Source of the DNA: a virus
Virus genome (UHGV): UHGV-0322013
Length of the DNA stretch: 31,976 bases
Strand: one strand, 5' to 3'
The position numbers and the translations under genes were made by a program. The first letter of the stretch is position 1. Each line of letters opens with the position of its first letter. The notes under the pieces are model-generated. The model had not been told where the DNA came from and made no database searches. It saw only the letters and a list, made by a program, of their open reading frames with translations. Below are positions 2,320-17,244 of the stretch, in pieces.

Positions 2320-3255
2320 TCAGTAGTTATGTACTGAAGGAGGTAATTCTTTATTCTTAAGTCTCATCCATGCGGAAAGATTCGTTGGTCCGTCTGGCTC
2401 ATTAATATCAACATCTCGTGTGTGATTGATTAAAACGTCTCTCGCCATTCCGATAACATACGAGAACTCATGACCGTAGTCGTAGCATCTGCCTGAATAG
2501 TTCGATTGAATTTGTTTTAGCGCCGGATACAGTTCGCGGAATAATGCCTGTGAGCGGTTGGCATAATCCCATAACCATACAAGGCTGTTTGCTTCTTTTG
2601 CAGAAAGCTCGTTGGTTTTCTTCTCTTGTTTGCCGATGAACTCGCCTTCGAGCGGAACGCGAGCTGCAAGTGACAGTGCTTCGGCAAACTGCTCCTCACT
2701 GATTTCTTTGTACGAACATCCAAAATGGGATTTCAGTGACGACCACATGGTGATCATCGCCTTAGCCTGTTTTTCTTTTGGCAGAGACTGACCGCGACTC
2801 ATGACGAGTTGTTTAATGGCTTCCTGCTGTTCAGTGGTGATTTTACCAGGCAACGCCTTTTTAGCTTTGCGTGGGTTAACTACATGGCCTTTAGTCCAGT
2901 AGTCATGCAGCACGCTAAAGCATTCCTCCTGGTACTGAATCAGTTTATCACGGATGTCAGCACGAACTTTCTCAGGGTTGATGCTGAACAGCCATCCATT
3001 TAACTTCTTCAAAGGAAGGCAGAGTAGCTTACGAAGCTTCCCATCAGCGGCAACCATGTTCATATGAACACAGTTGAATTTGCTAATCTGCTTCATGAGT
3101 TTTGTTTGCTGCGTTGACCAGCTCATTCCAAGGTTTTCAACGATTGGCTTCATCGCAACATATGCAACTCCGGCAGCCATGGCGGTGATAATTTGCTGAC
3201 CGTTGAATGGTACGTAAGAGGTGTTCACTGCTTCTAAAATTGCTATACTATTCAT
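2320..3255 (-). CDS. ant: Antirepressor Ant (P22 immI type)
   Basis: Track ORF 2320..3321; start placed at internal ATG ([46 protein letters not shown]...) which matches the P22 Ant N-terminus and has a GGAG RBS; 311 aa. Confidence 0.85.
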
Positions 3256-3320
3256 GTTGGTTTTTCTCCACGGATTTACTGACAACCGAAGCCCTGACTG
3301 TTCCCGCAGTTGGGGCTTCA
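3250..3320 (+). ncRNA. Candidate sar-like antisense RNA covering the ant ribosome-binding site (arc-ant intercistronic region)
   Basis: Plus strand has a TATACT -10-like hexamer inside the ant 5' end, then sequence antisense to the ant RBS and a stem (GAAGCCC / GGGCTTC). By analogy to P22 sar; boundaries are approximate. Confidence 0.3.
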
Positions 3321-3323
3321 ACT

Positions 3324-3485
3324 TTACGCGCCAATGCGCCCTTCCTTCTTAAAGCTGTCCATTACTCTCTGATAAATCTCAGAGTTAACAGATCGACCAT
3401 TCTCTTCCGCCACCTTGCGTACCAAATCCAATACTTCTTTAGGCCACCGCAAATTGAACTGCGGCATTTTGCTCATTCCTTTCAT
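3324..3485 (-). CDS. arc: Arc repressor (ribbon-helix-helix)
   Basis: Internal start of track ORF 3324..3548 gives [53 protein letters not shown] (53 aa), near-identical to P22 Arc as recalled. Confidence 0.9.
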
Positions 3486-3575
3486 ATTCACCTCACAATA
3501 TGGGTCCACCGTGGACCTATTGAGAATATAGTAGAGTGCTTCTATCATGTCAATACACTAACTTGGAGTGATGGC
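3486..3575. promoter_or_regulatory. immI divergent promoter/operator region: Mnt operator palindrome (about 3502-3518) and Arc operator (about 3528-3548) overlapping Pant and Pmnt
   Basis: GGGTCCACCGTGGACCT is a perfect palindrome matching the P22 Omnt core; ATAGTAGAGTGCTTCTATCAT is the reverse complement of the 21-bp P22 arc operator as recalled. Confidence 0.75.
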
Positions 3576-3827
3576 ATGGCTAGAGATGATCCGCACTTTA
3601 ACTTCCGTATGCCTATGGAAGTAAGGGAGAAATTAAAATTCAGGGCGGAGGCGAATGGGAGATCAATGAACTCTGAGTTGTTACAAATCGTCCAAGATGC
3701 TCTATCAAAACCATCGCCTGTGACTGGATATCGTGACGATGCAGAACGACTCGCTGATGAACAGTCAGATCTTGTTAAGAAGATGGTGTTTGATACGCTG
3801 AAGGATTTGTACAAAAAACCCACCTGA
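3576..3827 (+). CDS. mnt: Mnt repressor (ribbon-helix-helix; maintenance of lysogeny)
   Basis: Internal ATG of track ORF 3207..3827 gives MARDDPHFNFRMPMEVREKLKFRAEANGRSMNSELLQIVQDALSKPSPVTGYRDDAERLADEQSDLVKKMVFDTLKDLYKKPT (83 aa), matching P22 Mnt; GGAG RBS 8 nt upstream. Confidence 0.9.
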   Translation: MARDDPHFNFRMPMEVREKLKFRAEANGRSMNSELLQIVQDALSKPSPVTGYRDDAERLADEQSDLVKKMVFDTLKDLYKKPT

Positions 3828-3845
3828 AGGTGGGTCCTATTTATT
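3812..3845. terminator. Bidirectional rho-independent terminator between convergent mnt and the lipoprotein gene
   Basis: AAAAAACCCACC-TGAA-GGTGGGT then CCTATTTATT; the mnt stop codon TGA is the hairpin loop; A/T runs on both sides. Confidence 0.6.
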
Positions 3846-4263
3846 AGTCTTGCTTTGTTGATGGTATAAGAGATGCGTTTGCCTCTTTTGGCTTCAAGGT
3901 ATACATTCCACCATTAAATGGATCTACAGCAAGCCAACCAATTAACCCACCAAACACAAGGTTCCCACCAATATACCAACCATTAGCATTGGCTTTGATT
4001 GGCAGGGTAACTGGTTCATACCCATCCTTCTCCATAGTGATCTGGTAGCTCTTTTTGCCAAAATAGCTACCATCTGACTTGGCGAGTGTTACACCTTGTG
4101 GGGTCTTACCTTGCGCAACAATCACACCTGACTCATCTTTTACCTTAAAGCTCGCGCCAGAAGGATTGCTGTTCACTTGCACAAGTTGCGTTTCATCACC
4201 AACAATAGTTGCGCACCCAGATAACATGATAACGCCAGCGACGACGCTAATAATCCTCTTCAT
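3844..4263 (-). CDS. Lipoprotein of unknown function (PEGA-like beta domain, Gly-rich hydrophobic C-terminus); accessory gene in the P22 sieA position
   Basis: Track ORF 3844..4275; likely start at MKRIISVVAGVIMLSGC (signal peptide with lipobox LSGC). The mature part shows a PEGA-like pattern (VQVNSNPSGASFKV...GKTPQGVTLAKSDG...DGYEPVTLPI) and ends GGNLVFGGLIGWLAVDPFNGG. Confidence 0.7.
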   Translation of the reverse strand: MKRIISVVAGVIMLSGCATIVGDETQLVQVNSNPSGASFKVKDESGVIVAQGKTPQGVTLAKSDGSYFGKKSYQITMEKDGYEPVTLPIKANANGWYIGGNLVFGGLIGWLAVDPFNGGMYTLKPKEANASLIPSTKQD

Positions 4264-4380
4264 ATCAATTTCCATATTAAAAAAAACGGAAACATCCTAA
4301 TGACAAACCATTCAAATGTGAAGTAGGCAAAAGATGTTTACTTTTTTCATGGTATCCTGCTCAAAACTAAGGAGGTTGGT

Positions 4381-4704
4381 GTGTATACAACAGTTATCGT
4401 GATAGCTATCGCACTCATTGTGGTTCAGTATCAACTGGCATCTTTAAAACAAAAGATATTTGACCTCAAGACTGAGAACGAAGCACTTAAAAACTCAATA
4501 AAAGATGAGAAGAACAAACTATCATTCACTATATCTGATATTGAGCAATCCATTGAAATTATTGAGAATAATATTAACAGACTAAAAAAAGAAGATATTC
4601 ATGAAATCAATAACAATATCAAGGATTTGAAATCTTGGATTAGGAATGTAGGACAAATCTCCACATCAACACGAGATAAGCTCAATCCATCCATGGATGA
4701 CTAA
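4381..4704 (+). CDS. Small membrane-anchored coiled-coil protein, unknown function (AT-rich accessory gene)
   Basis: 107-aa ORF with GTG start 5 nt after AAGGAGG; N-terminal hydrophobic helix (YTTVIVIAIALIVVQY) then heptad-like K/E/N-rich sequence; very AT-rich; on the opposite strand to the flanking late genes. Confidence 0.6.
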   Translation: MYTTVIVIAIALIVVQYQLASLKQKIFDLKTENEALKNSIKDEKNKLSFTISDIEQSIEIIENNINRLKKEDIHEINNNIKDLKSWIRNVGQISTSTRDKLNPSMDD

Positions 4705-12268: not shown

Positions 12269-13564
12269 TCACGCAGTCTGGTTAGGCAGACCAACACCAA
12301 TTGCCTCTGGTCGTACAGCACATGCTGAATACCACACAGCAATACGGCACTTACCAGACAGAGTGTTGATATCACCCTGCGTTGCGAAGATGCCGTTAAC
12401 ACCAATACCAGGAATGCTGAAGGAAGACGTTTTCATGCCAGCAAACAGTTCATGGGTTACCGGGATAGGCTGAGACAGCAGACGGATTGAGTCATCAGCC
12501 CAGAACACGTTAGCGGTAGTTGTTGCCACGTTCAGAACGTTTACCGGAGTGGTATCAGCAAGAGAGGTGTTTACGTTAGCGTAAGCCTTCTCTTCTTTTG
12601 TCAGTGACGCGTCATCAAGCGCAATCGGCTTCGGCGTGATTTCGATGTGAGTACCATCGATCACACGGGTGATTGAGAAAGTCGCATCATCAGTCAGCAC
12701 GTTCTTCGCCATCTGAGACAGGAATTTCACACCAGTGAAGCTGATTTTGTCGCCGCGCTTAAATCCGGTGGTGGAGGATACGGTCACCGTTGCAACACGG
12801 TTGTCGACGTTCTCTTTGTTACCATCGGTATCAAGAGTGTATGCCTGCGGCTTAAACTTCTGCGCACCAGAAACAGTTACACCAGTAGCGGTTGACTTGG
12901 TAACTGCCGGAAGTTTCGGTGAGCGAAGAATTTCATCAAAGCCAGCAATCTGACGCTGAATAGTACCGTTGCGATACGCTTCTTCAGGAACGCGCCCGAA
13001 GATGTCACCATCTACCAGGTTGCGGCCTGCTTTGCGGTAATCATCAGGGTTCAGGAAGTAACTGATGCCCATATCGCGGTTTAGCTCACGGGAGAACATC
13101 AGGCGCTCTGCATCAGACACAAAATCCCAGCCAGACAGGCCAGTAGATGGACCAATTGCGCGGGTATCGTGAACAACAAGTGAGCCCATTTCAGTTGCCT
13201 GTTTGGCAATTGCTGACTCAATGTTATTCGCCAGTTTTTTGGCGGATGCCTGGATGCGGCGACGGTAAGAACGCTCATCACGCAGATCATCTGCACGAAG
13301 CTCGAAGAAATCGTTATCCGGATCGCCCATGTTGCATTTCACGGACAGCTCCAGAATCCCGGTTGCGTTGCCAGTTAAATCCCAGCCAGTCTGAGTTGGC
13401 GCTTCCTGCTCAACAGGCATCCACACGGTATTGCTTGAACGTTGCATGGATTCTGCCGGAGGGGTGTATTTTGTCACTTTGGACGCCATTGGCGTCAGGT
13501 TCTGGACGGTTTCGATGATTTCATCGATAGCGTAAGTAACTAACTGCCCTTCTTTGAGAGTCAT
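12269..13564 (-). CDS. Major capsid (coat) protein, P22 gp5-like
   Basis: 431 aa; many blocks match P22 coat as recalled ([55 protein letters not shown]). Confidence 0.95.
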
Positions 13565-13631
13565 ATATTGAATACCTTACTTTCTTTATGTGCTATACTA
13601 TTGTTATATCAACATATAGCGCATTAGGGTT

Positions 13632-14153
13632 ATGAGCATGGAACTGAATGAATACTTCGAATACCGCGATGGTTCTTTGGTTTGGAAAGCCAGAAGCTCT
13701 GAATTTTTCAACAACAAAAAGAATCGCAACTATCACAACGTTTGGAATGCAAAACACGCTGGGAAAGTTGCTGGTCTTTTAGAAAGCAATGGATATATCC
13801 GCATAAGAATTAACGGCATTAAGTGGCTAGCACACCGCATCGTATGGGTAATGTTTAACGGAGATATTCCAGAAGGCATGGAAATTGACCATATAAATGG
13901 GATTCGCCACGACAACAGAATTGAAAATCTTCGTCTTGTGAAAAAATCAGCAAACCAAAGGAATAGAATCAAACTATCTAAAAATAACTCCAGCGGAATA
14001 TCTGGAGTTTACTTTTGCAACACGCGGAAAAGATGGATCGCTCATAAGCGACTGCTTAATGCAAGAGTGCAAAAAGTATGTTCTTCATTCGAAGAGGCGA
14101 AAGAAGTAATCAGAAAGTTTGACGAGGAAAACAACATCACGATATCGAAATAA
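13632..14153 (+). CDS. Free-standing HNH homing endonuclease with AP2-type DNA-binding region
   Basis: 173-aa plus-strand ORF with the HNH core EIDHINGIRHDNRIENLRLV...NQRNR and a following SGISGVYF...KRWIA segment; AT-rich; paralogous to the ORF at 23275..23799. Confidence 0.85.
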   Translation: MSMELNEYFEYRDGSLVWKARSSEFFNNKKNRNYHNVWNAKHAGKVAGLLESNGYIRIRINGIKWLAHRIVWVMFNGDIPEGMEIDHINGIRHDNRIENLRLVKKSANQRNRIKLSKNNSSGISGVYFCNTRKRWIAHKRLLNARVQKVCSSFEEAKEVIRKFDEENNITISK

Positions 14154-15065
14154 TTATCGAATTCCTTTATTCAGTTGCGCCTTGAGCTTGCGGTATGTCT
14201 CTACATCCCCTTTGTTTGCTGCCGCTTCCATCTGCTTTTCAATCGCAGAAATATTTGCAGCAACAGCGTGTCCCTGAATGGGTTCATCAGGTAACGGGGC
14301 TTCTGAAACAGGCTTGGCTCGAGGCTTGAGAGTTAAACGTTCTGACAGTCGAGTGAGTTCAATCAGCGCGGATTGCCCGTCCATCGCCAGCAACTGGCGT
14401 GTTTTCTCAGGATTAGCACCAAGGTGATACATGAGAGCAGCGGATTTCTCCGGGAAGAGGCGCATGATGTCGGCACCGACTGCTGGCGGCACCAGTTGCA
14501 TGAATGCATCCTCTTTCTCCTGATAGTCAGGGATATTGAGCTTTTCCGCTGCGTCGTAGTGCTTACGGGCTGCCTCGACGTATTGCGCTGATTGCTGGGT
14601 GAACTCCTGAGTTTTGCGACCCTGCTCGGCGACAGCCTGGCTTCGTGCGTCCATAGCCTTGATCTGCCATTCACTGTTTGCCTGCTGGAAGGCAGCCAGT
14701 GCGCGGCTCTGGTCATAGTCGTACTTAGCCAGCGCATCTTCGGAAAGATAATCGTTAGGGTCTGGTTGTTTTGGTAACTCAGGGTTCACCCGCAGGTGCT
14801 CCGGCAACTCCCCACGCTTAACCGCTTCCATCTGCTGCTCAAGCTCACGCTGGCGTTTGCGTTCGATGCGGCGACGGGCAAATTCAGCATTAGTTGCCGG
14901 GTATTGTTTTGGTTTCTCATCGTCTTTCAGGACAATCTCGAAGCCTTCTTCCTGACCTGCGTTGTCGTTGGCATTATCGACAACTAAGCCATCAGCAGAT
15001 GCCGCTGCATGATTGCCGGGCAGGGTTAATTCTTCAGAAGCCTGAATGTCGGTGGTTTGGTCCAT
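14154..15065 (-). CDS. Scaffolding protein, P22 gp8-like
   Basis: 303 aa as in P22 gp8, with long near-identical stretches ([99 protein letters not shown]). Confidence 0.95.
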
Positions 15066-15078
15066 GATTAACTCTCTC

Positions 15079-17244
15079 TTATTGAGGTGTCTCGGCTACT
15101 CCGCCGGAGGGGATTTGAACTTGACGCATAAGATTCGCGAAATCCATGCGTTGTGAATGAGTCTGGTCTGCATCTTTAAGAAGCAGCTCAGCGTTAGCAC
15201 GAGCATCTTTGCTGCGCTGTTGCTGGAATTGACCTACGAGCTTGAGGTACTCACGCAGTTCTGCCTGCTTGTCGAGGTCCATATTGTTGAAGATCTCTGC
15301 GATCTTCGCGGCGTTGAGTTGGTTTTGGGCTTCAACCTTGGCGGCCTCAACCTGAATCTGCGCCTGTTGGTTCTCTGCCTTGAGCAATTCAGCCTGACCT
15401 TGCAGAAGGATGCCCTGCGCCTGAATTTGCTCTGCTGATGGCTGCTGCGGCTGTTGTTGTGCCTGTTGTACCATCTCCATCTCTTCAGGTGTTTCTGGTT
15501 TCTTCAGCCCCATCATCACCAGTTGCTTGTTCGCGTACTCTCGCATCATCTCGACGCCTTTACCGTCAAGCAGCGTGAAGTATTGCAGCATCAGCATCTG
15601 GAACTCTGGAGTACCTTGCGGAACCTTGGTAAGTAACTCCTGAATCTCTGCGCGGTTCTGTTCCTTCATGCTCTGGAAGGATGGCCCAACGTCCGTATAG
15701 CACTCATAGCGACCGCGAATGTCGTTGAGTGTGACCACATTGCCGGACTGGTAATCTACAACTTGCGCGTAGAGTTGAACGTCTTTCTCGCTTCCGTCTT
15801 CAAGAGTCAGCGTTACATGGCGAGGAACGTCATAAATATCGTTGACCATTGAGGCATAAATCTCGCCATCACGTCGCATTGCGGTAGCCAGGTTATCCTG
15901 AAACACGTATGTCTCAAGGTCTGCCCGCATGTTCAGTTGATTGACGGTATCGAAAGCGACCTGACCGTTTGCTGCCTGCGCATCCACACCAAGACTAGCC
16001 ACCTCTTTCACTGCGTTGGTGGCAGCCTCAAGCATGTAAGCGTTGGCTTGCGGCACTTCAGGGTTTTCCATGTAGGAGATTGGACCAATCGGCAGGTCGT
16101 TACCGTTTTCATCGGTCCTGTTCTGCAGATAGTACGGATAGTCATCATTTCCACCGTACATGTATTCGTAGCCTTCGATTTGCTCAGGGAAGAAGGTCGG
16201 TTTCTTCTTCGGTGAACGAGCAACAATATCGGCGTTGAACGACATGATCATGTTACGAAGGCGTTGACCGTCTTTCGTCAGCCTTACCACTCCTTCGTAG
16301 CACTCCTTGTCACCAGCGAATGACCATTCGCCATACACTGGAACGATTGGAATATGCTCTCCGGCTATCTTCTCGCGGTCTTTCAGTATCTGCGTGCAGG
16401 TGATGATCGACTTATACACACGCCGACGCTTCACCTTACGCTCTGCTACCTTAATGAATCCACGATTAGCCAGGTCGTCGATGACGTCTTTGATATCCTG
16501 TTGGTAATAGCTGACCGGCTCACCTGTCAGCGGGTCGCGGTAGATGAAGACTTTCTCTTTCTTCTCTTCTACCTCGTAATACTCAGCGACGTAGACGACA
16601 TCATTCGATACCCAAGGAAACAGCCATGTGTCATTCGGATTCTGGAAAGATGGCAAGGTGTCCGGATCAATACCGTAATCCTCTGCGAACTCTTTCCAGC
16701 CATTGCGCGACAAGGCGTTAATCACCGTGCAGTGCTTAGCGTCGCTCTTATCCATCTGCTTGCTGTTGGCTTCCCATATGACGTGTGAGCAGGCTTCATG
16801 GATTGGCAGGCGTCGGATTACCTGATTGTTGCTTGTTGGATCGTTGTCTTCGTACTGCGTGACCAGACGCCATGCACCAACGCCTGACTCTATCTGCTCA
16901 CGAACGCCAACGTTAACGGCAATTTTTGCCGTGTTATGGCGCATATCAGTACGATACATCCCCATCAACACATCGGCTGCATCAGGATTAGCACCGTCTT
17001 TTGGTCGGAAGAGAACGTCGATAGGGTTCCGGCGCATCTCTGCGACCAGTTTCCTGACCACCGGGCGAACAACATCGAATTGTCCGCGATATTGCAGGGT
17101 CGTGTAGTTTGATAGCCAGTCATCCCATTGCGACACTCGGCTAAAATACAGGTCATTTGTCGCCTCGGTTCTGGCTTCATCGCTCGCCATCCAGTCTGCG
17201 TCAAACTTACACAGAATGGAATTGAGTCTGTTTTCGTCGGCCAT
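15079..17244 (-). CDS. Portal protein, P22 gp1-like
   Basis: 721 aa (P22 portal ~725), immediately downstream of the large terminase gene; Q-rich C-terminal barrel region. Confidence 0.9.

Follow-up and report, generated by a model that had tools for sequence, protein, structure and literature searches.

A very probable sar antisense RNA gene in the immI region of a mosaic P22-like phage genome

In phage P22 the ant mRNA is kept from initiating translation by a small antisense RNA, sar, which base-pairs with it across the ribosome-binding site (RBS) and which is needed for proper control of the antirepressor and for the establishment of lysogeny (PMC12197685; PMC7968456). Here we ask whether a comparable RNA is encoded between arc and ant in a 31,976-nt stretch of viral DNA (hereafter the window), as an earlier note on this DNA had proposed. 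Our data indicate that positions 3221-3325 of the plus strand are, with little room left for doubt, the sar gene of a P22-like immI region. The element itself is already known, as sar is annotated in an identical copy in Salmonella phage epsilon34, and it reveals no new biology.

The immI region of the window

The window comprises most of a mosaic P22-like (Lederbergvirus) genome in reverse-strand reading, and its gene content includes the tailspike, the immI region, ejection and head genes, terminase, lysis genes, Q and early genes. The immI features are as follows.

2320..3255, minus strand: ant, the antirepressor (311 aa) and target gene of sar; ORF
3255-3253, minus strand: ant start codon, ATG
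3269-3265, minus strand: ant Shine-Dalgarno (SD) sequence, GGAGA
3324..3485, minus strand: arc (53 aa), first gene of the Pant operon; ORF, with Arc annotated at the aligned position in epsilon34 and P22
3326-3324, minus strand: arc stop codon
3502..3553, no strand assigned: immI control region; promoter scan and alignment to the operators annotated in P22
3502-3518, no strand assigned: Omnt; 16 of 17 bases as in P22, one outermost base differing
3528-3548, no strand assigned: Oarc; identical to P22
3520-3548, plus strand: Pmnt; promoter scan, 10 of 12 consensus matches
3553-3525, minus strand: Pant; promoter scan, 11 of 12 consensus matches
3576..3827, plus strand: mnt (83 aa), repressor of Pant in the lysogen; ORF, with Mnt annotated at the aligned position in epsilon34 and P22

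This is the arrangement of a P22-type immI region: mnt diverges from arc-ant, the promoter scan places Pmnt and Pant as overlapping and divergent promoters, Omnt and Oarc are both present, and the Arc, Mnt and Ant reading frames are all in place. Conservation of the immI operators, on which the earlier note had relied, is borne out by the alignment.

The Ant protein carries both Pfam antirepressor domains (P22_AR_N, E 5.3e-45; P22_AR_C, E 5.6e-30) and is 81% identical to the Ant of epsilon34 and 93% identical to that of N7. Between these domains lies a central patch of ant (2654-2887, minus strand) that is 97-100% N7-like yet only 35-43% identical to epsilon34, while both ends of the gene are epsilon34-like; owing to this patch Ant is 11 residues longer than the P22 and epsilon34 proteins. 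The N7-like patch marks an intragenic mosaic joint. Downstream of mnt are two small genes in common with epsilon34 (gp15; gp14/hkcB-like). The product of the first (3844-4275, minus strand) has a lipoprotein-like N-terminus (…LSGC) and a weak, sub-threshold match to the PEGA domain, and the second (4381-4704, plus strand) encodes a coiled-coil protein whose N-terminal part includes a hydrophobic segment.

The predicted sar RNA and its promoter

On the strand opposite ant we found a promoter sequence and an RNA gene with the following parts.

3221..3249, plus strand: Psar; maps onto the Psar annotated in P22 (BK000583) and epsilon34
3221-3226, plus strand: Psar -35 hexamer, GTGTTC
3241-3242, plus strand: TG of the extended -10, giving TGCTATACT
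3244-3249, plus strand: Psar -10 hexamer, TATACT
3256..3325, plus strand: sar antisense RNA (about 68-70 nt); Rfam RF00262, with ends taken from the P22 annotation via the alignment
3256..3283, plus strand: sar hairpin I; minimum free energy fold and Rfam consensus structure
3288..3325, plus strand: sar intrinsic terminator; fold, the same stretch being annotated as the sar terminator in P22

The sar RNA model (RF00262) was the sole Rfam family detected in the window, matching 3256-3323 of the plus strand across its whole length (model positions 1-68 of 68) with 95.6 bits and an E-value of 1.5e-19, more than double its gathering score of 43. The match sits in the arc-ant intercistronic region over the ant SD, and the plus strand from 3256 onward is a perfect complement of the 68-nt arc-ant spacer throughout its length, SD GGAGA included, so that the predicted complementarity to the ant RBS is present in full. 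Folding of the 70-nt RNA gives two hairpins with a combined energy of -29.4 kcal/mol (z = -4.78 versus shuffles). Hairpin I has a 6-bp stem (GUUGGU/ACUGAC) and a 16-nt loop in which the anti-SD sequence UCUCC is found (3265-3269). The second, the stem-loop that had been noticed ahead of arc, is a GC-rich hairpin of 14 bp (3288-3319) with AACUUU directly after it, where the final two U overlap the arc stop codon; its stem is identical to that of the annotated P22 sar terminator, and its U tract is short, with three U only. Two plus-strand ORFs that run over this region (3207-3827 and 3221-3352) were considered and set aside as artefacts, arising from mnt read-through or antisense frames.

The promoter Psar has a 17-nt spacer and lies entirely inside ant codons 2-12, its extended -10 TGCTATACT falling wholly within codons 2-5. 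Its -10 and TG are identical to those of Psar in P22 and epsilon34 at the same position, and its -35 differs from that of P22 by one base. In P22, transcription converging from Pant activates Psar. The -10-like TATACT pointed out in the earlier note exists, its actual site being six bases to the left of the interval that had been assigned to the RNA (3250-3320). The accompanying claim that sar starts inside the 5' end of ant is right for the promoter and wrong for the transcript: a start about 7 nt past the -10 would place the RNA 5' end at 3256, adjoining the ant ATG, as in the P22 annotation.

Taken by itself the -10 motif is statistically unremarkable and cannot carry the argument, as the window holds two copies of TGNTATACT where 0.61 would be expected, and 14 of 100 shuffles contain at least two copies. 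The sar element as a whole, unlike the motif alone, is far beyond chance.

The window's only other copy of TGCTATACT (13591-13599) is situated 33 nt upstream of the ATG of an ORF of 173 aa that encodes an HNH_3 endonuclease domain (13591-14153, plus strand; Pfam E 3.9e-22), and is probably that ORF's own extended -10 promoter. The ORF lies antisense between the coat (12269-13564) and scaffold (14154-15065) genes, which adjoin directly in phage IME10, and it looks like a homing-endonuclease moron within the late operon.

A generic scan for sigma-70 promoters and terminators called Pant, Pmnt and the mnt terminator, and called neither Psar nor the sar terminator. The scan calls a promoter only with 4 or more of 6 matches in the -35 and a terminator only with 5 or more T in the tail, and the sar terminator went uncalled because its U tract is short. 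We considered the missed calls as evidence against sar and rejected them as such, since the experimentally defined Psar and terminator of P22 fail the same rules.

Over 551 bases around sar the window is 99.5% identical to epsilon34 and 93.9% identical to P22. From Psar through the arc stop codon it does not differ from epsilon34 at all (EU570103, misc_RNA 15539-15606; Psar 15614-15642), where the record annotates a 'small antisense regulatory RNA' and a promoter 'located by similarity with P22 Psar', and the epsilon34 genome paper describes Sar as encoded and immI as apparently functional (PMC2629481). The likeness extends to the setting, with sar between arc and ant, mnt flanking, and the two shared downstream genes. 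Differences from epsilon34 are confined to the surroundings of the element, namely the mosaic background of the window with its late genes resembling those of the E. coli phages HK620 and IME10, and the N7-like patch in ant.

Relative to P22 (RF00262; BK000583 15021-15090, where sar promoter, antisense RNA and terminator are annotated), 68 of 70 RNA bases and the -10 are identical, and the architecture is shared: a promoter within ant, an RNA that begins beside the ant ATG and folds into two hairpins, and a terminator that overlaps the arc stop. The alignment to P22 that had been suggested as a check therefore finds the promoter conserved, with just three substitutions between Psar and the arc stop codon. 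All are A to C in the direction from P22 to the window, at 3226 (the -35, GTGTTA to GTGTTC), 3271 (hairpin I loop) and 3303 (terminator loop).

The first of these substitutions raises the question of whether Psar has been weakened in the lineage of epsilon34, N7 and the window, such that little or no sar is made and Arc and Mnt alone control ant. The -35 GTGTTC retains 2 of 6 matches to TTGACA, one fewer than GTGTTA in P22, and the generic scan made no call here. The extended -10 TGCTATACT is intact, however, and promoters of this (TGn) type rely little on their -35. The GTGTTC variant is moreover stable, being unchanged in epsilon34, UPF_BP1 and N7, the sar stretch is matched with an identity of 99% or more in 87 E. 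coli records, and the remaining RNA has not decayed. We therefore regard such a weakening of Psar as quite improbable, and an active sar gene as the preferred reading.

Divergent homologues and distribution

A BLAST search run at higher sensitivity recovered the segment that extends from the -10 through the sar 3' end in 71 phage records. The Rfam sar model scores above its gathering score in P22, epsilon34, N7, S.Kent 1-2-1, Kapi1, EC.P3, Cronobacter ES2, SPN3UB and S107, and below it in SEN22; in Erwinia Midgardsormr38 it gave no match at E-values up to 0.01. Among 5426 complete E. coli genomes, 835 (about 15%) likewise carried a sar-like stretch, and the one RefSeq record that we inspected, the prophage in the E. 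coli F374 chromosome, lacks any annotated RNA between arc and ant.

For ten homologues, a MAFFT-based consensus fold recovered only the terminator hairpin, hairpin I being misaligned between subgroups, and hairpin I was therefore compared from Rfam model alignments and single-sequence folds. Its stem shows compensatory variants (UCAAUA/UGUUGA, UCGUUA/UUACGA and GUCGGU/ACUGGC, for GUUGGU/ACUGAC in the window), and a pyrimidine-rich anti-SD remains in its loop across the homologues. The 32-nt terminator hairpin (3288-3319), on the other hand, is near-invariant across loci that differ in hairpin I, in arc and in the N-terminus of the antirepressor, a degree of conservation that exceeds what a terminator stem normally needs. 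Hairpin-only BLAST matches in Emek and in an E. coli prophage raised the prospect that the hairpin is also used independently, which we rejected: both lie at the same site upstream of an antirepressor, and both have a sar-like promoter and hairpin I, the 5' half having diverged.

This excess conservation is what would be expected had the hairpin been selected mainly on the minus strand, as a processing or stability element of the arc-ant mRNA or as a module boundary, with the plus-strand RNA merely incidental. No U tract follows the hairpin on the minus strand, however, whereas one is present on the plus strand and is longer in divergent homologues (AACUUUUU, AACGUUUUU), and in every locus the position of the plus-strand promoter co-varies with the hairpin. 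Selection chiefly on the minus strand is accordingly even harder to credit than a weakened promoter. The two roles are not mutually exclusive, and a minus-strand role could exist in addition to termination of sar.

The promoter is likewise kept where its coding context changes. Of ten aligned divergent loci, nine share both TGCTATACT and its distance to the ant ATG, SPN3UB being the exception with TGCTACAAT in its place. The N-terminal domain of the antirepressor meanwhile varies among P22_AR_N (window, S.Kent), Bro-N (Kapi1, SPN3UB) and KilA-N (Emek); since the promoter is conserved despite these domain switches, what is kept is a nucleotide signal and not a protein domain. That TGCTATACT, lying as it does entirely inside ant codons 2-5, is conserved solely as coding for the Ant peptide M-N/K-S-I-A can be given almost no credence, as the peptide is kept before three unrelated N-terminal domains, SPN3UB has changed the encoded residues to N-I-V-A yet keeps the TG and a good, consensus-like -10 (TACAAT), and in P22 Psar has been experimentally defined at this very site, as annotated in BK000583.

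Probable antisense control of ant and its significance

Given that the element matches epsilon34 at every base and P22 at nearly every base, we infer the same function for it, and production of the RNA and repression of ant in this phage are thus carried over from the P22 work. On this model Psar, a sigma-70 promoter of the extended -10 type within the first codons of ant, would drive transcription in the direction of arc. The resulting RNA of about 68-70 nt, its first base adjoining the ant start codon, would end at the GC-rich hairpin and its short U tract. With its anti-SD UCUCC presented in the loop of the 5' hairpin, sar would pair with the arc-ant leader of the Pant transcript and sequester the ant RBS, such that translation of the antirepressor is blocked and arc is left untouched. 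Sequestration of the RBS would in turn hold Ant output low during infection, allowing lysogeny to be established, and Mnt and Arc would control Pant at the level of transcription. In P22 infection sar has been detected by small-RNA sequencing, where the 'P22J-sar' entry, 104 nt long, has its 5' end 6 nt ahead of the annotated +1 and extends past the terminator into arc (PMC13397905, Table 2); this extent suggests either imprecise ends or some read-through of the terminator in vivo.

Two other phage antisense RNAs invite comparison. Like sar, the c4 RNA of P1 and P7 is a small phage RNA that blocks translation of ant by pairing around its RBS (PMC12197685). Its sequence is unrelated, however, and c4 is processed from the transcript of its own target and acts via short complementary loops, whereas sar is a convergent, fully complementary cis-antisense transcript. 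The OOP RNA of lambdoid phages is, similarly to sar, a short cis-antisense RNA with its own promoter and intrinsic terminator that affects the choice between lysis and lysogeny (PMC12197685), but it targets the 3' end of the cII mRNA and promotes its decay without occluding an RBS, and it has no sequence relationship to sar.

Antisense control by sar is an early, textbook case, and the importance of the present locus beyond its correct annotation is slight. Automatically annotated E. coli prophages tend to have no entry for the sar RNA. With sar placed alongside Mnt and Arc, this mosaic P22-like genome holds a complete immI control circuit for the antirepressor. Although speculative, and in our view rather doubtful as a whole, it is conceivable that the sar unit is a portable regulatory cassette, which would combine an extended -10 in a fixed M-N/K-S-I-A leader peptide with a variable hairpin I and a near-invariant 32-nt terminator hairpin, would be joined to any of three unrelated N-terminal domains, and would apparently be present without annotation in about 15% of complete E. 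coli genomes. A second function of the hairpin is possible within this proposal, and its near-invariance could then reflect a recombination joint between modules or a signal in the ant mRNA.
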